DNA of 31,427 nucleotides from IMG/VR virus record IMGVR_UViG_2667527789_000018, positions 1 through 31,427 of that record; one strand, given 5' to 3'. Numbering within the stretch: position 1 is the first letter of the stretch; each line of letters opens with the position of its first letter. The stretch comes from a virus. Taxonomy: Duplodnaviria > Heunggongvirae > Uroviricota > Caudoviricetes. Of this stretch, positions 3,510 through 24,876 are shown one piece after another. The notes beneath the pieces were generated by a model. That model worked only from the letters and a program-made list of their open reading frames with translations. It did no database searches and was not told where the DNA came from. Position numbers and translations under genes: made by a program.

Positions 3510-5784
3510 AGCCTCCGGGCGTTTTGTCCCTCCGTCAGCATTTGCCGCAGGCACCGGTAAGGCGTTTACTGGTGCTTATGCATGGAACGCGCCACGCGAG
3601 GCTGTCGGGCGCGAAAGACCCCTTACACGTGACGAGATGCGTCAGGTGCAAGGTGTTTTATTCACGATTAACCGCCTGCCTTACTTTTTGCGCTCGCTGT
3701 TTACTTCACGCTATGACTACATCCGGCGCAATAAAAGCCCGGTGCACGGGTTTTATTTCCTCACATCCACTTTTCAGCGTCGTTTATGGCCGCGCATTGA
3801 GCGCGTGAATCAGCGCCATGAAATGAACACCGACGCGTCGTTGCTGTTTCTGGCAGAGCGTGACCATTATGCGCGTCTGCCGGGGATGAATGACAAGGAA
3901 CTGAAAAAGTTTGCCGCCCGTATCTCATCGCAGCTTTTCATGATGTATGAGGAACTCTGCGATGCATGGGTTGATGCACATGGCGAGAAAGAATCGCTGT
4001 TTACGGATGAGGCTCAGGCGCATCTGTATGGTCATGTTGCTGGCGCTGCACGAGCTTTCAATATTTCCCCTCTCTACTGGAAAAAATACCGTAAAGGACA
4101 GATGACCACGAGGCAGGCATATTCTGCCATTGCCCGTCTGTTTAACGATGAGTGGTGGACTCATCAGCTTAAAGGTCAGCGTATGCGCTGGCATGAGGCG
4201 TTACTGATTGCTGTCGGGGAGGTGAATAAAGACCGTTCTCCTTATGCCAGTAAACATGCCATTCGTGATGTGCGTGCGCGCCGCCAGGCAAATCTGGAAT
4301 TTCTTAAATCGTGTGACCTTGAAAACAGGGAAACCGGCGAGCGCATCGACCTTATCAGTAAGGTGATGGGAAGTATTTCTAATCCTGAAATTCGCCGGAT
4401 GGAGCTGATGAACACCATTGCCGGTATTGAGCGTTACGCCGCCGCAGAGGGTGATGTGGGGATGTTTATCACGCTGACCGCGCCGTCAAAGTATCACCCG
4501 ACACGTCAGGTCGGAAAAGGCGAAAGTAAAACCGTCCAGCTAAATCACGGCTGGAACGATGAGGCATTTAATCCAAAGGATGCGCAGCGTTATCTCTGCC
4601 GCATCTGGAGCCTGATGCGCACGGCATTCAAGGATAATGATTTACAGGTCTACGGTTTGCGTGTCGTCGAGCCACACCACGACGGAACGCCGCACTGGCA
4701 TATGATGCTTTTTTGTAATCCACGTCAGCGTAACCAGATTATCGAAACCATGCGTCGCTACGCGCTCAAAGAGGATGGCGACGAAAGAGGAGCCGAGCGA
4801 AACCGTTTTCAGGCGAAACACCTTAACCGGGGCGGTGCTGCGGGGTATATCGCGAAATACATTTCAAAAAATATCGACGGCTATGCACTGGATGGTCAGC
4901 TCGATAACGATACCGGCAGACCTCTGAAAGATACTGCCGCGGCTGTTACTGCATGGGCGTCAACGTGGCGCATCCCGCAATTTAAAACGGTTGGTCTGCC
5001 GACAATGGGGGCTTACCGTGAACTACGCAAATTGCCTCGCGGCGTCAGCATTGCTGATGAGTTTGACGAACGCGTCGAGGCTGCACGCGCTGCCGCAGAC
5101 AGTGGCGATTTTGCGTTGTATATCAGTGCGCAGGGTGGGGCAAATGTCCCGCGCGATTGTCAGACTGTCAGGGTCGCCCGTAGTCCGTCGGATGAAGTTA
5201 ACGAGTACGAGGAAGAAGTCGAGAGAGTGGTCGGCATTTACGCGCCGCATCTCGGCGCGCGTCATATTCATATCACCAGAACGACGGACTGGCGCATTGT
5301 TCCGAAAGTGCCGGTCGTTGAGCCTTTGACTTTAAAAAGCGGCATCGCCGCGCCTCGGAGTCCTGTCAATAACTGTGGAATGCTCACCGGTGGTGATACT
5401 TCGTTACCGGCTCCCACACCTTCTGAGCACGCCGCAGCAGTGCTTAATCTGGTTGATGACGGAGTTATCGAATGGAATGAGCCGGAGGTCGTGAGGGCGC
5501 TCAGGGGCGCATTAAAACACGGCCTGAGAACACCTAATCGTCAGCAAAGAAACGGAAGCCCGTTAAAACAGCATGAAATAGCGCCATCGGCCAGACTGAC
5601 CCGGTCGGAACGAATGCAAATCACCCGTATCCGTGTTGACCTTGCTCAGAACGGTATCAGGCCGCAGCGATGGGAGCTTGAGGCGCTGGCGCGTGGCGCG
5701 ACCGTAAATTATGACGGGAAAAAATTCACGTATCCGGTCGCTGATGAGTGGCCGGGATTCTCAACGGTAATGGAGTGGATATAA
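3499..5784 (+). CDS. A: rolling-circle replication initiator endonuclease gpA
   Basis: First ATG at 3499 (MAVKASGRF) gives 761 aa, the P2 A length I recall; HUH-type motif HWHMMLF and tandem-tyrosine motif YIAKYISK seen in the translation. The tracked ORF begins at an upstream TTG (3457). Confidence 0.9.
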   Translation: MAVKASGRFVPPSAFAAGTGKAFTGAYAWNAPREAVGRERPLTRDEMRQVQGVLFTINRLPYFLRSLFTSRYDYIRRNKSPVHGFYFLTSTFQRRLWPRIERVNQRHEMNTDASLLFLAERDHYARLPGMNDKELKKFAARISSQLFMMYEELCDAWVDAHGEKESLFTDEAQAHLYGHVAGAARAFNISPLYWKKYRKGQMTTRQAYSAIARLFNDEWWTHQLKGQRMRWHEALLIAVGEVNKDRSPYASKHAIRDVRARRQANLEFLKSCDLENRETGERIDLISKVMGSISNPEIRRMELMNTIAGIERYAAAEGDVGMFITLTAPSKYHPTRQVGKGESKTVQLNHGWNDEAFNPKDAQRYLCRIWSLMRTAFKDNDLQVYGLRVVEPHHDGTPHWHMMLFCNPRQRNQIIETMRRYALKEDGDERGAERNRFQAKHLNRGGAAGYIAKYISKNIDGYALDGQLDNDTGRPLKDTAAAVTAWASTWRIPQFKTVGLPTMGAYRELRKLPRGVSIADEFDERVEAARAAADSGDFALYISAQGGANVPRDCQTVRVARSPSDEVNEYEEEVERVVGIYAPHLGARHIHITRTTDWRIVPKVPVVEPLTLKSGIAAPRSPVNNCGMLTGGDTSLPAPTPSEHAAAVLNLVDDGVIEWNEPEVVRALRGALKHGLRTPNRQQRNGSPLKQHEIAPSARLTRSERMQITRIRVDLAQNGIRPQRWELEALARGATVNYDGKKFTYPVADEWPGFSTVMEWI

Positions 5785-5895: not shown

Positions 5896-7734
5896 ATGAG
5901 CGAGTTCGATGTTTTTTCTATTTCAGTTGATGATTTTAAAAAAAGTGAGTACGCCAGTATATTGTTACCACCAAGAAGCCATTCTTATTTTGAAATGGAA
6001 TCTTATTTTTTTCAGTTGTTGTCATTTTATAAGCAAAAAAAAGATGTGAGTTCTTGGAGGGTTTGCTATTTATTACGTTCGTTATTTAGTTTAAAATTTT
6101 CTAAGTCTGGTGATATTATCGACTTTGAGTCTAAAATCATTCTCTATCCTAAGCGAGGTTATAGACCTTCAGATTACAAGGATAATTATTTAACCATATT
6201 AACTTGTATTAAAGAAAATACTGACAACCCTTATATTATATCTAGGGTGTGTGATGTTTTATGGATAAATAACCGTAAGGATATAGATTCTGCTAATAAA
6301 GCAATAGAGTCATATGCTCTAATGATTAATGATGCTTGTGATACTTTGTTAGAAAAAAAGGAATCAGGTGACATCCATGTTTTTGATGTCGTTGACTGCT
6401 TGGATAGAGGTATTACAATATCGCGCATGCTTATTGGCAGGAAAAAACAACTGCAAGGAGGGATAGTTGACTCGACGTTAAGGCTATATCATATATTAAT
6501 AGATTCTAGTATATTTATCGGTGTTTTAAGAATTTCTGAAATTCTTTATAAGAATAATTTATTGTGCCCCTTACAATTGGCTAAGAATGCAGAAAAGATA
6601 GCTGATGAGCATTGTGGAGCTTCTTATTTTGATGCTGTGAAAAAATTGTTTTATTTTGCGTCTGAATTATATGTTAAAAATGATATGGAAGAGCAAGGAA
6701 GAAGGTGCAAAATGAAAGCGACAGAAATAACATTGGCTCAATTTGAACAGTCTTCATCTCCAACATTGAAGGCTCATTGGCTAAGAGTTGCTCTTGGGGA
6801 ATTTAGAGCGATTGGTGGAATGAGTGAAAGGATTAAAGAGATTAAAGAGGAATTAAATTCTATTCGAGATCAAATCAATGATGAAATGTATTCCTTTGCA
6901 ATACCAATGGATCTTAGTGATGTTATCGCTCAGAAAGAGCATATTTATAATCAATTAAATTTCTCAGAAATAATTAAAAAATTAATCTCTAGATTTAAGG
7001 TTGTAAGTGCCAGTGAGATTATGGAAAGAGCTCGCTCTGATGCTAAGAGATATTTTTTTGTTAATGTGAGTGATACGGTTTTTTATGATGACAGAGGACG
7101 CGTTGTGGCAAGGCAACCACCTTTAGATTCTGCTGGGGATATAAGTCTAGATGATGCCTGTGTAAATTATTTAAGAACTAGTAATATTGAGCATCAGTTT
7201 TATGTTTATGGTGAGTTTGAAGTTGTTAGGCAAAGAGTGTTGTCTAGGTATTCATTAAATGAGAATACATTTGACCCAATCTCACAACAAAGTCTATTTG
7301 TTCCTCCTGGGTATGCGGAAATATTTTCTTTAGGATTTCTTAAGCTTTGGCAGGGGGATTATGTGTCTGCCTGTTATTTGTTGTTGCCGCAGTTGGAGAA
7401 TTCAATTAGATGGATTTTAGAATTAAGAAGAAAAGAAACAACGAAAATAGATGTGTCACTTTTTGAGGAGGCTACTAGTCTATCTCAAATGCTTGCAAAT
7501 TATAAGAGTGAAATGGAAGGTATTTTTGGGAGTGATCATGTATTGACTATGGATTTATTGTTCAATATGAAAGGTGGTGCTGCAATTAGACACACGATGG
7601 CTCATGGCAGGTATACTGTAAATCATTGTTATCAACCAACTTCAGTTTTTGCCTGTGTCTTTATCTTTTATTTAACTTGTTTGCCTTTATTTAGTGTATG
7701 GGAAGATAAAGTTGAACCTTATCTGACTGATTAA
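5896..7734 (+). CDS. AT-rich accessory (cargo) protein of unknown function, 612 aa; candidate anti-phage defence protein
   Basis: ATG 5896 preceded by AGGTGAGGA; about 32% G+C in a 60-nt sample versus about 57% in phage genes; occupies the tin/old position of P2; no P-loop; C-terminal R-x4-H motif (AIRHTMAHGRY). Confidence 0.8.
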   Translation: MSEFDVFSISVDDFKKSEYASILLPPRSHSYFEMESYFFQLLSFYKQKKDVSSWRVCYLLRSLFSLKFSKSGDIIDFESKIILYPKRGYRPSDYKDNYLTILTCIKENTDNPYIISRVCDVLWINNRKDIDSANKAIESYALMINDACDTLLEKKESGDIHVFDVVDCLDRGITISRMLIGRKKQLQGGIVDSTLRLYHILIDSSIFIGVLRISEILYKNNLLCPLQLAKNAEKIADEHCGASYFDAVKKLFYFASELYVKNDMEEQGRRCKMKATEITLAQFEQSSSPTLKAHWLRVALGEFRAIGGMSERIKEIKEELNSIRDQINDEMYSFAIPMDLSDVIAQKEHIYNQLNFSEIIKKLISRFKVVSASEIMERARSDAKRYFFVNVSDTVFYDDRGRVVARQPPLDSAGDISLDDACVNYLRTSNIEHQFYVYGEFEVVRQRVLSRYSLNENTFDPISQQSLFVPPGYAEIFSLGFLKLWQGDYVSACYLLLPQLENSIRWILELRRKETTKIDVSLFEEATSLSQMLANYKSEMEGIFGSDHVLTMDLLFNMKGGAAIRHTMAHGRYTVNHCYQPTSVFACVFIFYLTCLPLFSVWEDKVEPYLTD

Positions 7735-19756: not shown

Positions 19757-22012
19757 ATGAGCACAAAATTCAAAACCGTTATCACCACTGCCGGTGCAGC
19801 AAAGCTGGCAGCGGCAACCGCACCGGGAGGGCGGAAGGTCAACATTACCACGATGGCCGTCGGGGATGGCGGTGGTAAATTGCCTGTCCCGGATGCCGGA
19901 CAGACCGGGCTTATCCACGAAGTCTGGCGACATGCGCTGAACAAAATCAGTCAGGACAAACGAAACAGTAATTATATTATCGCAGAGCTGGTTATTCCGC
20001 CGGAGGTGGGCGGTTTCTGGATGCGTGAGCTTGGCCTGTACGATGATGCGGGAACGTTAATTGCCGTGGCGAACATGGCCGAAAGTTATAAGCCAGCTCT
20101 TGCCGAAGGTTCAGGGCGTTCGCAGACCTGCCGCATGGTCATCATCGTCAGCAGTGTGGCCTCAGTGGAGCTGACCATTGACACCACAACGGTGATGGCG
20201 ACGCAGGATTACGTTGATGACAAAATTGCAGAGCACGAACAGTCACGACGTCACCCGGACGCCTCGCTGACCGCAAAAGGTTTTACTCAGTTAAGCAGTG
20301 CGACCAACAGCACGTCTGAAATGCTGGCCGCAACGCCAAAAGCCGTTAAGACGGTAATGGATGAAACGAACAAGAAAGCGCCATTAAACAGCCCTGCACT
20401 GACCGGCACGCCAACGACGCCAACTGCGCGACAGGGAACGAATAATACTCAGATCGCAAACACGGCTTTCGTTATGGCCGCGATTGCCGCCCTTGTAGAC
20501 TCGTCGCCTGACGCACTGAATACGCTGAACGAGCTGGCGGCGGCGCTGGGCAATGACCCGAATTTTGCTACCACCATGACTAATGCGCTTGCGGGTAAGC
20601 AACCGAAAGATGCTACCCTGACGGCGCTGGCGGGGCTTGCTACTGCGGCAGACAGGTTTCCGTATTTTACGGGGAATGATGTTGCCAGCCTGGCAACCCT
20701 GACAAAAGTCGGGCGGGATATTCTGGCTAAATCGACCGTTGCCGCCGTTATCGAATATCTCGGTTTGCAGGAAACGGTAAATCAGGCTTCTGGCGCATTG
20801 CAGAAAAATCAGAACGGCGCGGATATTCCTGATAAAGATCGCTTCCTGAGTAACATTAATGTTTACAGCAAAGGCGAGGTGGATAAGAAAAAAGGAATGC
20901 GGCAGTACGTATTTAACGCGCCGTCTAATGCTGTTGGTGGAAAGTGGTATCCAGTTATTTTCCGGCGTTCCACTGGTAGCACTGGCGAACTGGCTTCCAG
21001 AGTGGTTATTACAACCACATCTGCCGGTGGTGATTACGCAATGAATAACTGCGAATTTAATGGAATGGTAATGCCCGGAGGTTGGACTGATCGTGGTTCA
21101 TATGCAGCAGGTTATTTTTCGACATATCAGACTAATGAGCGCGCAATCCATTCCATTGTAACAAGCCTGAAAGAAGATGATGTATGCAGCGTTTTTTACG
21201 TTGAAGGCAGGGCTTTTCCTGTGCGAGTTTTTGCCGAAGAAGGGCTAACGGTTATTGTTCCAACTCAGGATTATACCGTCGGTCAAACAACATATAAGTG
21301 GGGAGCAACTAATCCCGCGACAGAAAGCACGAACGCACAAGCCATTCTGGATTTTAACAATGGGCGAGGGTTTTATTGTTCTCACTCAATATTCGGTATT
21401 AATGCCATTTTTAGCGGAAATCTGGGGATTGGAACGGCTAATGCCCTGGGGGGAAATTCAATAGTTTTAGGAGATAACGATACTGGGTTTAAACAAAATG
21501 GTGATGGGGTGCTGGATGCTTATGCTAATGGTGTGCATGTATTCCGCTTTAGAAATGGCTCAGCAATATCATTAAAGGGTATTCAAGCTGGGGAAAGTAA
21601 GTTATTCACACTTTCAAGTGCAAATACCGCTGCCCATAATGCATCATTTAACTTGTGGGGAAATTCGTCAAGACCAACTGTTGCAGAGCTTGGTGATGAT
21701 TCAGGCTGGCATTTCTATAGTCAGCGAAATACAGATAACTCGGTGACATTTGCTGTAAACGGTCAGATACAACCAAGCAGCTGGGGTAACATTGATTCCA
21801 GATATGTGAAAGATGTTCGGCTTGGCTCACAGCAATATTATGGTGTGAACAACTGGCAAACATGGAACTTCCAGTGCCCTTCAGGTCATGTATTGTCTGG
21901 TATAAATGTTCAGGATACAGGTTCCAACTCCGCCGATAATATTGCGGGTGTTTATTACAGACCCGTTCAAAAGTATATAAATGGCACATGGTATAATGTA
22001 GCGAGCGTTTAA
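19757..22012 (+). CDS. H: tail fibre protein gpH with divergent, lower-GC C-terminal receptor-binding region
   Basis: 751 aa; conserved N-terminal part ([20 protein letters not shown]...), G+C drops from about 63% (near 19800) to 42-48% (21300-21660); followed by the fibre assembly chaperone. Confidence 0.88.
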
Positions 22013-22013
22013 T

Positions 22014-22541
22014 ATGATGCACTTAAAGAACATAAAAGCGGGTAACGCTAAAACACTGGAACAGTATGAGTTAACAAAGAAGCATGGAGTCATCTGGCTT
22101 TACACTGAAGACGGGAAAAACTGGTATGAGGAAGTGAAGAACTTTCAGTCAGACACAATAAAGATTGTTTACGATGAAAATAATATTATTGTCGCTATCA
22201 CCAGAGATGCTTCAACGCTTAATCCTGAAGGTTTTAGCGTTGTTGAGGTTCCTGATATTACCTCCAACCGACGTGCTGACGACTCAGGTAAATGGATGTT
22301 TAAGGATGGTGCTGTGGTTAAACGGATTTATACGGCAGATGAACAGCAACAACAGGCAGAATCACAAAAGGCCGCGTTACTTTCCGAAGCGGAAAGCGTT
22401 ATTCAGCCACTGGAACGCGCTGTCAGGCTGAATATGGCGACGGATGAGGAATGCGCACGACTGGAGTCATGGGAACGCTACAGCGTTCTGATCAGCCGTG
22501 TGGATCCTGCAAATCCTGAATGGCCGGAAATGCCGCAATAA
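22014..22541 (+). CDS. G: tail fibre assembly chaperone gpG
   Basis: 175 aa immediately after H; C-terminus [23 protein letters not shown] as I recall for P2-family G. Confidence 0.85.
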
Positions 22542-22593
22542 GTTGTATAAGCTCTGGTGTGAGATTACATATCTATGGCACAGAGTAAAGCCT

Positions 22594-22603
22594 AATCTGA
22601 CAG
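22594..22603. repeat. left copy of 10-bp inverted repeat AATCTGACAG flanking the G-FI cargo
   Basis: AATCTGACAG at 22594-22603; its exact reverse complement occurs at 23493-23502. Confidence 0.5.
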
Positions 22604-22762
22604 GCCGCTCTGTGTCTGGAGTAGATTTTAGTAAAGCATTATTTTATTAGTGCAAATTCTAATCAATACATTTTATGTATATGATATCCTGCGGACTTTA
22701 ATGACTTGGTTTAGGCTAACCAGATAACACTGAAGGAATATTTTTGATAATTAAGGTGCGGT

Positions 22763-23356
22763 ATGTTTACTAAGCGACGATTAAAAAATATTAACTGGGA
22801 GGCAAGTTCAGTGATTCTTGCTATGGTTCTCTTTGTTGGAAATATATTTTATACAAATCATCGTGATGATATAAACATGGAGGCTGAGAGAGACAGTATC
22901 AGAACAATGTTTGCATATGAAATCGCTAATAACCATCGCGCTCTCACTTTTCTTGATAAAACGAGACATATTGGCTTTGACGAAAATTCGGAGCATTTTG
23001 TTGGCGAGCCTTTTGCCATTAATGTCAAATCATTAGGGGGACCTCGCTTACAGATTGCATTAAACCAGACTGATAAAGTGTTTAAATCCTACTTCGGCGA
23101 ATTAAGTAAGCTTGATAAAGAGGATGTTACTCTTCTTATGGACTATTACCATGAGCAAAGCATCCTGCTGGAGCGTGTAAAATCTACGTTACAGAAGATG
23201 AAAAGTGGTAATGATATTAAAGTTGATATTGATGGTTACTTATTAGAAGAACACTTCATGAATGAGCTTAATCTTTCTAATATATTGCTTAAACGCTATA
23301 GCTATTTATTATCACAACACGCTAAAGAACATAAAACAAAAGATTTACATAATTGA
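22763..23356 (+). CDS. AT-rich accessory membrane-anchored protein, 197 aa, in the Z/fun hotspot; candidate superinfection-exclusion or defence protein
   Basis: About 32% G+C in a 60-nt sample; N-terminal hydrophobic helix (SSVILAMVLFVGNIFY) then a charged soluble domain; occupies the G-FI intergenic slot where P2 carries Z/fun. Confidence 0.7.
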   Translation: MFTKRRLKNINWEASSVILAMVLFVGNIFYTNHRDDINMEAERDSIRTMFAYEIANNHRALTFLDKTRHIGFDENSEHFVGEPFAINVKSLGGPRLQIALNQTDKVFKSYFGELSKLDKEDVTLLMDYYHEQSILLERVKSTLQKMKSGNDIKVDIDGYLLEEHFMNELNLSNILLKRYSYLLSQHAKEHKTKDLHN

Positions 23357-23492
23357 TAATCTGCTAATGGTTATTCATGGGGTAACTATGTTTTATATGT
23401 AATCCAGCTCAGATGAATTATTGATTCTGGATAATAACCGCAGAGCGGCATATACCCTGACAGGCAAATGTCCGCTTCTTGCTCAAAGCAGA

Positions 23493-23502
23493 CTGTCAGA
23501 TT
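23493..23502. repeat. right copy (inverted) of 10-bp repeat AATCTGACAG
   Basis: CTGTCAGATT at 23493-23502 is the reverse complement of 22594-22603; additional CTGWCAG copies at 23457-23463 and 23526-23532. Confidence 0.5.
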
Positions 23503-23544
23503 TGATAACTTTTGGGCTATGTAAACTGTCAGTCGGAAAATGAG

Positions 23545-23562
23545 TGTGTACAAATCAGGACA
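23545..23562 (+). promoter_or_regulatory. candidate Ogr-dependent late promoter element (TGT-N12-ACA dyad) for the FI operon
   Basis: TGT(23545-23547)-N12-ACA(23560-23562), about 130 bp upstream of the FI start; P2 late promoters carry a TGT-N12-ACA dyad near -55. Confidence 0.35.
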
Positions 23563-23685
23563 GGCGGGCGAATTGCCCGCATTTTCTTTATCTGTTGTTT
23601 CATCCACTGACCAGCCAGGTCAAATAGCGTCTCATGCTCTGCACAACAGAAAATAGTTGCACCCATTAACCACGGAGTTAAACGG

Positions 23686-24876
23686 ATGAGTGACTATCAT
23701 CACGGCGTGCAGGTGCTGGAGATTAACGACGGCACCCGCGTCATTTCCACCGTATCCACGGCCATTGTCGGCATGGTCTGCACGGCCAGCGATGCAGATG
23801 CGGAAACCTTCCCCCTCAATAAACCGGTGCTGATTACCAATGTGCAGAGCGCAATTGCAAAGGCCGGTAAAAAAGGCACGCTGGCGGCATCGTTGCAGGC
23901 CATCGCTGACCAGTCAAAACCGGTCACCGTTGTCGTGCGCGTGGAAGACGGCACCGGCGACAATGAGGAAACGAAACTCGCGCAGACCGTTTCCAATATC
24001 ATCGGCACCACCGACGAAAACGGTCAGTACACCGGACTAAAAGCCCTGCTGGCGGCGGAGTCGGTAACCGGTGTTAAACCGCGTATTCTCGGTGTGCCGG
24101 GACTGGATACCAAAGAGGTGGCTGTTGCACTGGCATCCGTCTGTCAGAAGCTGCGCGCTTTCGGGTATATCAGCGCATGGGGCTGTAAAACCATTTCCGA
24201 GGTGAAAGCCTACCGTCAGAATTTCAGCCAGCGTGAGCTGATGGTCATCTGGCCGGATTTCCTCGCATGGGATACGGTCACCAGTACCACCGCCACCGCG
24301 TATGCCACCGCCCGTGCGCTGGGGCTGCGCGCTAAAATCGACCAGGAGCAGGGCTGGCATAAAACGCTGTCCAATGTCGGGGTGAACGGTGTTACCGGCA
24401 TCAGCGCCTCTGTATTCTGGGATTTGCAGGAGTCCGGTACTGATGCTGACCTGCTTAACGAGTCAGGCGTCACAACGCTGATTCGCCGCGACGGTTTCCG
24501 CTTCTGGGGTAACCGTACCTGCTCTGATGACCCGCTGTTCCTCTTTGAAAACTACACCCGCACCGCGCAGGTGCTGGCCGATACGATGGCTGAGGCGCAC
24601 ATGTGGGCGGTGGACAAGCCCATCACCGCAACGCTGATTCGCGACATCGTTGACGGCATCAATGCCAAATTCCGAGAGCTGAAAACAAACGGCTATATCG
24701 TGGATGCGACCTGCTGGTTCAGCGAAGAATCCAACGATGCGGAAACCCTCAAGGCCGGAAAACTGTATATCGACTACGACTATACACCGGTGCCTCCTCT
24801 TGAAAATCTGACCCTGCGCCAGCGTATTACCGATAAATACCTGGCAAATCTGGTCACCTCGGTTAACAGCAATTAA
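23686..24876 (+). CDS. FI: contractile tail sheath protein gpFI
   Basis: 396 aa; GGAG SD; followed by the tail tube gene. Confidence 0.92.
   Translation: MSDYHHGVQVLEINDGTRVISTVSTAIVGMVCTASDADAETFPLNKPVLITNVQSAIAKAGKKGTLAASLQAIADQSKPVTVVVRVEDGTGDNEETKLAQTVSNIIGTTDENGQYTGLKALLAAESVTGVKPRILGVPGLDTKEVAVALASVCQKLRAFGYISAWGCKTISEVKAYRQNFSQRELMVIWPDFLAWDTVTSTTATAYATARALGLRAKIDQEQGWHKTLSNVGVNGVTGISASVFWDLQESGTDADLLNESGVTTLIRRDGFRFWGNRTCSDDPLFLFENYTRTAQVLADTMAEAHMWAVDKPITATLIRDIVDGINAKFRELKTNGYIVDATCWFSEESNDAETLKAGKLYIDYDYTPVPPLENLTLRQRITDKYLANLVTSVNSN

Follow-up and report, generated by a model that had tools for sequence, protein, structure and literature searches.

The question raised by this locus is how one interval between two tail genes of P2-like phages came to hold different genes in different phages, and what the gene found there in the present case may do. 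The stretch analyzed here (IMG/VR record IMGVR_UViG_2667527789_000018, 31,427 nt, hereafter the window; all coordinates are positions in it unless a locus is named) is a P2-like prophage, in which the interval between the tail fiber assembly gene G and the tail sheath gene FI contains an AT-rich segment with a gene for a 197-aa protein, bounded by inverted repeats. As judged from sequence comparison, these repeats are carrier ends derived from an insertion sequence (IS) of the IS481 family, with live relatives in E. coli, and this is the main new result. The element at 22544-23552 is probably a fossil, non-autonomous, cargo-carrying derivative of this IS family that now serves as the Z/fun slot, its 197-aa passenger most likely acting in envelope protection.

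In reference P2 the same G-FI interval is occupied by fun(Z), which lies on the opposite strand and is annotated as blocking T5; this record and the list of open reading frames (ORFs) of the window agree with the position assigned to the gene by a first-pass annotation, made from the window sequence only. The ORF itself (22763-23356, plus strand, 197 aa) is present as described there, its G+C content being 34.3% instead of the ~32% given, compared to 51.7% for the whole window. Sliding G+C stays at 0.27-0.40 across 22600-23400, while the flanking genes G and FI are at 0.50-0.60. E. coli RM11911 contains a copy of the region, 99.9% identical, with the complete P2-type gene order and adjoining fieF.

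The locus has been noticed before, and is said to have been named the "Z-region" by Nilsson, Karlsson and Haggard-Ljungquist in 2004. In the GenBank record AJ512683.1 the annotated "left inverted repeat" maps to the left arm of the element described below and the "right inverted repeat" to ~23469-23559, and the left and right inverted repeats annotated in the record of P2-EC58 map to ~22514-22626 and ~23469-23559. The arms are already annotated in the GenBank records of Nilsson et al., and both the locus and its repeats were known. It is also the second P2 defense hotspot of Vassallo et al. 2022 (PMC9519451), rediscovered with an automated pipeline (bioRxiv 10.1101/2024.10.15.618418), while Rousset et al. 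(PMC9122126) analyzed only the other P2 hotspot, old/tin. Our literature search found no text containing the arm sequences and none linking IS481-type cassettes to P2, the 2004 study being represented in it by its title and GenBank annotation only.

Constant arms and varied cargo in P2-like phages

The first-pass annotation had described a perfect 10-bp inverted repeat around the gene. The exact pair exists (AATCTGACAG at 22594-22603, inverted at 23493-23502) and can be lengthened to 19 nt with 84% complementarity, but it is neither a simple 10-bp repeat nor a private boundary of this cargo, since the 10-mer is only the core of conserved imperfect inverted arms of ~90 bp (22544-22629 and 23467-23552 in a gapped alignment). 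Taken alone the 10-mer is not significant, as several further exact inverted pairs of 9-10 nt occur within the same 1.4 kb; it is considered real because it is conserved across phages and elements.

A cluster of the 7-mer CTGWCAG at 22597, 23457, 23493 and 23526 had also been noted, against about four copies expected by chance per window. The four sites and the local excess stand. By our estimate 2.8 +/- 1.8 copies are expected, and the window contains 12, a number reached in none of 100 shuffles. Five of the 12 fall within 22420-23532, the fifth being at 22420. The copies at 22597, 23493 and 23526 are arm motifs, and the one at 23457 belongs to an additional, rearranged version of the left core (23441-23465) that is particular to this cargo, being absent from that position in other cargo classes. 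The local excess is thus explained by repeated subterminal motifs of the arms, which are presumably transposase-binding sites. A search of 22400-23750 for known RNA families gave only a single chance snoRNA match, below threshold.

Eighty IMG/VR loci were gathered via the FI protein, and about 40 of them share both flanks with the window. These ~40 loci contain about 30 unrelated classes of cargo, 0.8-4.1 kb long and all AT-rich (31-42% G+C), and in nearly all of them homology to the window breaks at the same points, on the left at 22614 (or 22621-22625) and on the right at 23462-23478. The position of the left break at 22614/22615 results from the inner part of the left arm being degenerate in the window. 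Both arms are therefore constant backbone across different cargos, P2 and P2-EC58 included; in particular, the left arm is kept in P2 and ~35 P2-like loci with other cargo, and the right arm is kept in P2 and P2-like loci with other cargo as well. The view of the locus as a discrete cassette in the Z/fun slot is therefore borne out by ~30 unrelated cargos sharing the same junctions in related phages. The same cargo is found in 13 phage records (96.6-97.9% identity), other P2-like phages matching only from ~23457-23471 rightwards, and it is also present in 203 of 5426 complete E. coli genomes (~4%), always on the chromosome.

PADLOC models were matched by eight of ten alternative cargo proteins, chosen from among the largest: a retron-type ATPase-Toprim effector, PDC-S15, Shedu SduA, a TIR protein, a DpdB-like protein, PD-T4-6, PDC-S51, and a protease domain like those of reverse transcriptase-protease or Lamassu systems. 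This proportion makes the slot a defense hotspot in practice.

Homologous exchange in the flanks certainly happens, to judge by the loci compared. Phages that differ in cargo are still 85-98% identical in the flanks, the 201 E. coli copies of the window cargo analyzed for orientation are all colinear with their flanks, and one locus (L030, 1807-4830) has two tandem cassettes. In this locus a repeat of the last 155 nt of G and another left arm come before the second cassette, as might be left behind by unequal recombination in the flank. One could then suppose that cargo turnover is due to homologous recombination alone, acting between P2-like phages in G, the arms and FI, with the repeats inactive today and the junctions marking the points where ancestral insertions differ. 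However, such recombination shuffles existing cassettes and cannot load a new gene between the arms, and it leaves unaccounted for the free elements outside P2 that share the arms and differ in cargo (see below). As the whole explanation it seems quite improbable.

Three loci without cargo (L006, L014 and L049) are also without the repeats. They read CAATAA-AT-ACAGGCGGGC, that is, the stop codon of G, AT, and then the terminator hairpin (23564-23590 in the window). P2-like phages of other genera (85-90% FI identity) have no arms either. The empty loci indicate that the unit which is present or absent is 22544-23552 plus seven bases, and not the cargo alone.

The same loci decide between a cassette and phage regulatory sites, two readings that the first-pass annotation had set against each other. 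The repeats and the CTGWCAG motifs might be Ogr or late-promoter sites, or transcription insulators of the late operons, given that the module lies between two late operons, that the motif is locally enriched, and that the arms could in principle insulate transcription of the cargo. Cargo-less P2-like phages, however, have no arms and keep both the terminator and the late promoter pF; the arms have no intrinsic-terminator features and also occur in non-phage settings, namely arrays of contact-dependent inhibition (CDI) toxin modules and islands. The activator site of pF maps outside the arms, and CTGWCAG was rejected as an Ogr site on this ground. Since cargo-less prophages lack the repeats, a regulatory origin is extremely improbable.

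In some loci of the collection (L003, L016, L021, L028 and L035, at ~4760-4900; also in the matches H61 and H62) a Hin/Pin-type DNA invertase gene is found directly upstream of FI, replacing the module and the terminator.

Arm-cargo-arm units outside P2 and the putative parent insertion sequence

In E. coli CEC15, a search of complete genomes turned up an exact 36-nt copy of right-core sequence, well away from any P2 prophage and within an array of orphan CDI toxin modules. The unit at this site is complete, with a left arm (3967-4052 of locus L089), two hypothetical genes and a right arm (5997-6082). E. coli GON1437 carries a unit with the CEC15 cargo at a different site, inside an IS1-family element (L091, 4268-7156), and E. 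coli MDP9-27 has the same arms around other cargo, encoding a SEC-C-motif protein, in an AlpA/RepL/H-NS island. The arms of the free units are 80-88% complementary over ~90 bp. Partial arms are present in CFT073/Nissle and in a lambdoid prophage of MS7163, and the outer arm sequence occurs in 312 of the 5426 E. coli genomes. Moreover, Enterobacter and Kosakonia contain larger paired-arm elements, with cargo such as a ThiF-JAB protein or a nuclease-like protein accompanied by an IS110-family transposase, and short paired-arm elements of 684-1810 bp were found too. No cargo common to the free elements and the sampled P2 loci was found.

The free copies are flanked by 7-bp direct repeats, perfect in CEC15 (GATTATC) and GON1437 (TATTATA), and GATAGC(C) in MDP9-27. 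Empty sites with a single 7-mer were identified in strains M19 and Nissle 1917, by searching with the two flanks joined by one 7-mer and aligning the matches; for the GON1437 copy the empty site is an IS1-type sequence that is uninterrupted in Nissle 1917, as in many further strains. Target duplications of 7 bp together with empty sites indicate that the arm-cargo-arm unit transposes.

A scan for the terminal motif in one genome per species gave at least 120 matches, mostly in Enterobacterales (Citrobacter, Erwinia, Pectobacterium, Dickeya, Serratia, Kosakonia, Klebsiella, Salmonella arizonae, Xenorhabdus, Providencia, Hafnia, Edwardsiella). Some genomes have many copies of the motif at contig ends, which is a signature of a multi-copy IS, and the IS is indeed multi-copy in Erwinia and Entomohabitans. 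The complete IS was found as a collapsed 1201-bp Serratia contig with termini TGTATTAGCTCAGACCTGATCTGACAG..., beginning with TGT. Its single ORF of 361 aa is scored as an IS481-family transposase by the NCBIfam model NF033577 (281.8 bits, cutoff 224) and has the Pfam domains HTH_29 and rve. Full-length copies at 87-89% identity are present in 77 complete E. coli genomes, with at most 10 matching places (full or partial) per genome, and one E. coli copy is flanked by a perfect 7-bp duplication, TTTTAGC.

The arms correspond to the ends of this IS in a crosswise manner. The left arm of the window aligns to the left arms of the non-P2 elements and to the right end of the IS, and the left arm of cargo units in general resembles the IS right end, while the right arm aligns to the right arms of the non-P2 elements and to the IS left end; the CEC15 right arm, read inward, has one mismatch to the IS left end in the first 29 nt. 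Both arms and both IS ends contain two CTGWCAG motifs each, ~30-50 nt apart. The free units can thus be regarded as transposase-less, passenger-carrying derivatives of the IS481-family IS. The presence of the same element at two sites in CEC15 and GON1437, and of the full-length IS in 77 E. coli genomes, is circumstantial evidence for mobilization in trans.

Three observations were made in passing. The 1201-bp IS has a match in 4862 of the 5426 E. coli genomes, the best match being nearly always below 95% identical and covering at least 80% of the length in only 77, which points to widespread relics or related IS copies. The CEC15 cargo (L089, 4097-5748) encodes a 292-aa protein with a weak RHS-repeat match and a 156-aa protein with no match, and could be a toxin/immunity-like pair. 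Finally, a 5.2-kb element of Kosakonia arachidis has an IS110-family transposase immediately within its right arm (L171, 7783-9024), and an IS110 pseudogene lies ~4 kb from the partial arm of CFT073 (L090, 9203-9587); this may be targeted insertion or coincidence.

Exchange of cargo at the arms

The constancy of the junctions allows another interpretation, in which the repeats are target sites of a site-specific recombinase and cassettes are inserted or exchanged by crossover in a hairpin core at each boundary. The title of the 2004 study reportedly implies a hypothesis of this kind. The junctions coincide within a few bases in ~30 unrelated cargos, and the free copies likewise keep the arms and differ in cargo. 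The 36-bp core has a near-constant outer half and a variable cargo-side half, and it resembles an 11-6-11 palindrome in many P2-like loci; strong folding is seen for some P2-like left cores (-10.5 kcal/mol, z = -4.1 in L031), and in a few loci (L010, L013) the inner halves are exact complements.

Other results speak against it. A permutation test on 25 cargo classes gave no covariation of the two inner halves (7.04 vs 6.92 matches, p = 0.30), and for this reason a cassette-borne palindrome, with inner core halves travelling with the cargo, was rejected. The cores of the window, of CEC15 and of one P2-like right arm fold no better than shuffled sequences (z of +0.47 and -0.06 for the window arms), and conserved junction hairpins were rejected in turn, as only some P2-like left cores fold well. 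Moreover, the central 6-mers are not the same in the left and right cores, the slot has no associated recombinase, and a search of IMG/VR for arm-arm sites without cargo, made with an exact pattern of limited sensitivity allowing a gap of up to 30 nt, gave none. The arms are also independently explained as IS ends. Site-specific exchange at the repeats is therefore unlikely.

Inversion between the repeats was rejected because all 201 of 201 E. coli copies have one orientation and no sampled cargo class occurs in both. An invertible segment of the Hin/Gin/Cin/Pin type was discarded on the same count of copies and because the G-FI interval of the window has no invertase, and an integron attC-type site because this interval has no integrase, the window arms do not fold stably and the inner halves do not covary. 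The suggestion of the first-pass annotation that the cassette is moved by site-specific or inverted repeat-mediated recombination thus survives in one form, as transposition of the whole arm-cargo-arm unit by its inverted repeats, while site-specific or hairpin exchange and inversion gained no support from the tests made.

The 197-aa protein

The protein has a sole hydrophobic segment (residues 13-32, with a best 19-aa Kyte-Doolittle window of 1.54), and AlphaFold predicts a helix at residues 12-31, in agreement with the single N-terminal transmembrane helix proposed from the translation. The flanks of this anchor carry charges of +4/-1 on the N-terminal and +2/-5 on the C-terminal side. By the positive-inside rule this pattern predicts a cytoplasmic N-terminus and a periplasmic C-terminal domain. 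The AlphaFold model (pLDDT 75.8, pTM 0.71) has a generic four-helix bundle after the anchor.

Searches of Pfam, NCBIfam and PADLOC gave no match for the protein, and the matching PHROG 3829 is labelled as of unknown function. No similarity in sequence or fold to a described defense, superinfection-exclusion or immunity family was found, and there is no homology to P2 Fun(Z) (best BLASTP E = 2.2; 197 vs 528 aa). A word-indexed search produced 38 clusters, named "lysogenic conversion protein" or "hypothetical" at NCBI, from Escherichia, Pantoea, Pluralibacter, Salmonella, Kosakonia and Enterobacter, and an exhaustive profile search of 1.84 billion representatives only 29 clusters. The aligned family is compact: nearly all members have ~197 aa, identities are 53-93%, and invariant residues are spread over the entire protein.

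The homologs occupy accessory positions in varied mobile elements. They directly follow the primase of P4-like satellites in Pantoea ananatis and Kosakonia; a Pantoea homolog resides in an AlpA/DUF6387/RepL island, the same type of island that hosts the element copy of MDP9-27 (these satellite and island loci are L083 4001-4600, L221 3001-3591 and L219 3001-3594). The Salmonella homolog adjoins a methylase/DUF4928 pair beside fieF, and the one on an Enterobacter plasmid is beside IS91 and a VapC toxin-antitoxin pair. No arms were found around the distant homologs in Pantoea, Kosakonia, Salmonella and on the Enterobacter plasmid. Such positions suggest that the gene acts as a self-contained moron.

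Several known exclusion proteins share the predicted signal-anchor topology. We tentatively consider protection of the lysogen at the level of the envelope, for example by blocking genome entry of another phage, as the most likely role, because the slot is dominated by defense genes, the gene recurs in satellites and islands, and the predicted topology is like that of these proteins.

An intact copy of the gene is carried by the phage P2_AC1. E. coli C lysogenic for this phage was protected against lambda and LF82_P8 and no others, an effect reproduced by the cloned TIR system of the other hotspot (PMC9122126). The panel in that study consisted of lambda, T4, P1, 186, CLB_P2, LF82_P8, AL505_P2 and T7, with T5 absent. 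The lack of extra protection against six panel phages is compatible with a protein that is not anti-phage at all, being some other lysogenic-conversion or accessory product such as a periplasmic bacteriocin or toxin immunity protein, an envelope modifier, or a membrane-damaging abortive-infection effector. The NCBI name, "lysogenic conversion protein", and the absence of a PADLOC match agree with such a role, and a signal anchor with a periplasmic domain is also what periplasmic immunity proteins have. Against it, the neighbors in the slot are mostly defense systems (eight of ten in the PADLOC scan; PMC9519451), the satellite and island slots of the homologs are typical of defense genes, and no similarity to any immunity family was found. 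We regard a role outside phage defense as rather doubtful.

Expression of the gene in the lysogen may be considered in this connection. The terminator scan predicted no terminator between G and the ORF, and with no convincing promoter upstream (see below) expression in the lysogen can only be presumed, read-through from the late operon being possible.

The element in the window as a probable fossil

The element of the window has no transposase between its arms, the only sizeable ORF being the 197-aa gene. When 22544-23552 and one of the flanking 7-mers are removed from the window, the remaining sequence is CAATAAGTACAGGCGGGC, and the empty phages read CAATAAATACAGGCGGGC, with exactly the same length and one mismatch.

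The history of the locus would then be as follows. An ancestor of P2 would have been hit by the element at a 7-bp target, AATAAAT, overlapping the stop codon of G and lying upstream of the late-operon terminator, with the transposase of an IS481-family element probably acting in trans. The insertion would have become the Z/fun accessory slot, the arms staying as constant backbone while the DNA between them was replaced many times, mostly by anti-phage genes. In the window the passenger would be a single gene, its product being predicted to sit in the inner membrane via the N-terminal helix with the four-helix-bundle domain in the periplasm.

Several observations weigh against this reading, both for the element and for its passenger. 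The two 7-mers of the window agree at only 5 of 7 positions. Compared with the consensus TGTATTAGCTCAGA, the left terminus TGTATAAGCTCTGG matches at 11 of 14 positions, and the right one, read inward as TGTACACACTCATT, at 8 of 14. Our analysis found no mechanism for the exchange of cargo between constant arms, either in P2 or in the free copies, and no transposition was observed. As for the protein, its hydrophobic segment is only moderately hydrophobic, there is no convincing sigma-70 promoter upstream of the gene (one weak site at 22724-22751 is too near the start codon to serve), and the P2_AC1 lysogen, with its intact copy, showed no protection attributable to the gene against T4, P1, 186, CLB_P2, AL505_P2 and T7.

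As the termini are degenerate and the 7-mers imperfect, the origin of the window copy rests on homology and on the arithmetic of the empty site, and not on a clean duplication. The degenerate termini also suggest that this copy is probably immobile now.

Feature coordinates and the neighboring region

The coordinates of the element, its passenger and the flanking phage features are collected in Table 1. By its position relative to annotated P2, the pF activator site together with the transcription start is predicted to lie outside the element.

Table 1. Coordinates of the element and of neighboring features in the window.
Feature	Position	Strand	Details and basis
Tail fiber assembly gene G	22014-22541	+	Stop codon TAA at 22539-22541; ORF list, annotation in the RM11911 prophage and PhiR44_1
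Presumed 7-bp target duplication, left copy	22537-22543		AATAAGT; overlaps the G stop codon; empty-locus comparison
Left arm, terminal inverted repeat, apparently IS-end-derived	22544-22629		Terminus TGTATAAGCTC; holds the 10-mer at 22594-22603
Degenerate core of the left arm	22603-22626		GGCCGCTCT at 22603-22611; GTGTCT at 22612-22617; GGAGTAGAT at 22618-22626
AT-rich cargo segment	22630-23466		34% G+C; homology breaks against relatives
Cargo gene, 197 aa	22763-23356	+	Predicted N-terminal signal-anchor helix (residues ~12-31) and all-helical, four-helix-bundle-like domain
Rearranged extra copy of the left-arm core	23441-23465		CAGAGCGGC, complement of 22604-22612; CTGACAGGC, direct copy of 22597-22605
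Right arm	23467-23552		Core 23467-23502, including the 10-mer at 23493-23502; second CTGTCAG at 23526-23532; degenerate terminus ...GTGTGTACA ending at 23552
Presumed 7-bp target duplication, right copy, degenerate	23553-23559		AATCAGG; empty-locus comparison; perfect duplications in free relatives
Intrinsic terminator	23564-23590	+	GCGGGCgaaTTGCCCGC and T-run; terminator scan; empty loci
pF late promoter region	23589-23660	+	Ogr-type activator site at ~23589-23617, transcription start at ~23660; offset from the FI start codon, annotated P2
Tail sheath gene FI	23686-24876	+	ORF list, annotation in RM11911 and PhiR44_1

A separate feature is seen upstream of the element, in the region 20700-22300. 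From ~20700, inside the tail fiber gene H, the G+C content drops from ~0.58 to 0.39-0.49, rising again only close to the 3' end of G, which suggests that the receptor-binding end of H was exchanged horizontally together with G.

Comparison with known systems and significance

The locus has several features in common with Z/fun of P2, namely the position between G and FI, the flanking inverted repeats (as in P2 and P2-EC58), AT-rich foreign DNA, and alternative cargos that include validated defense genes, e.g. PD-T4-6. The window cargo, in contrast, is unrelated to Fun(Z) and lies on the opposite strand.

Mobile insertion cassettes, such as MIC231 of the Bacillus cereus group and the qnrS2 cassette of Aeromonas plasmids, are transposase-less elements whose inverted repeats match those of an autonomous IS and enclose passengers. 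The elements described here share these properties, and in the free copies the target duplications are 7 bp long, as they are in the putative parent IS. They differ in having arms of ~90 bp, ~35 bp of which are absent from the IS ends, and in combining one pair of arms with many cargos; moreover, the P2 copy is fixed in the phage backbone with decayed termini, and mobilization in trans is presumed here. Compared with the IS481 family itself, represented by the 1201-bp putative parent with one transposase ORF scoring above the curated cutoff, the window element has no transposase and degenerate termini, and thus it is to be considered a derivative and not a member.

Integron attC cassettes and Xer-dependent dif modules are similar in being discrete cassettes of one or two genes with sharp ends marked by imperfect inverted repeats. 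Unlike them, the locus has no integrase and no attC-like R''/R' core sites at conserved positions, and its arms are IS ends; the cores in the window are inverted copies with different central hexamers, and their folds are no better than those of shuffled sequences.

Membrane-anchored superinfection-exclusion proteins, such as HK97 gp15, lactococcal Sie2009 and T4 Imm, resemble the 197-aa protein as small products of prophage morons with an N-terminal anchor and an extracytoplasmic domain (predicted in the present case), encoded near tail genes. No similarity in sequence or fold to them can be demonstrated, the fold of the 197-aa protein being a generic four-helix bundle.

Phage-borne defense hotspots are now a main source of new immune systems, but their origin and turnover are still speculative, PMC9122126 discussing no more than possible recombination routes. 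Our results make one classical hotspot traceable to a concrete mobile element: the ends are recognizable, target duplications and an empty site are at hand, and there is a candidate transposase, so that the origin of the hotspot becomes testable by experiment. In a wider form, which we put forward only as a possibility, the Z/fun hotspot may be a domesticated IS481-derived carrier whose live relatives, mobilized in trans by the IS, would still ferry small defense- or toxin-type cargos between prophages, islands and CDI arrays of E. coli, and the 197-aa protein may be a new single-gene envelope exclusion factor. For the time being the cargo is a compact, conserved, uncharacterized membrane protein of a small family, a reasonable candidate for an exclusion function and no more yet, while the arm sequences offer a handle for finding small cargo genes elsewhere in Enterobacterales. 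If this interpretation is true, a transposon-derived "cassette holder", and not generic recombination, would have founded a phage defense hotspot.

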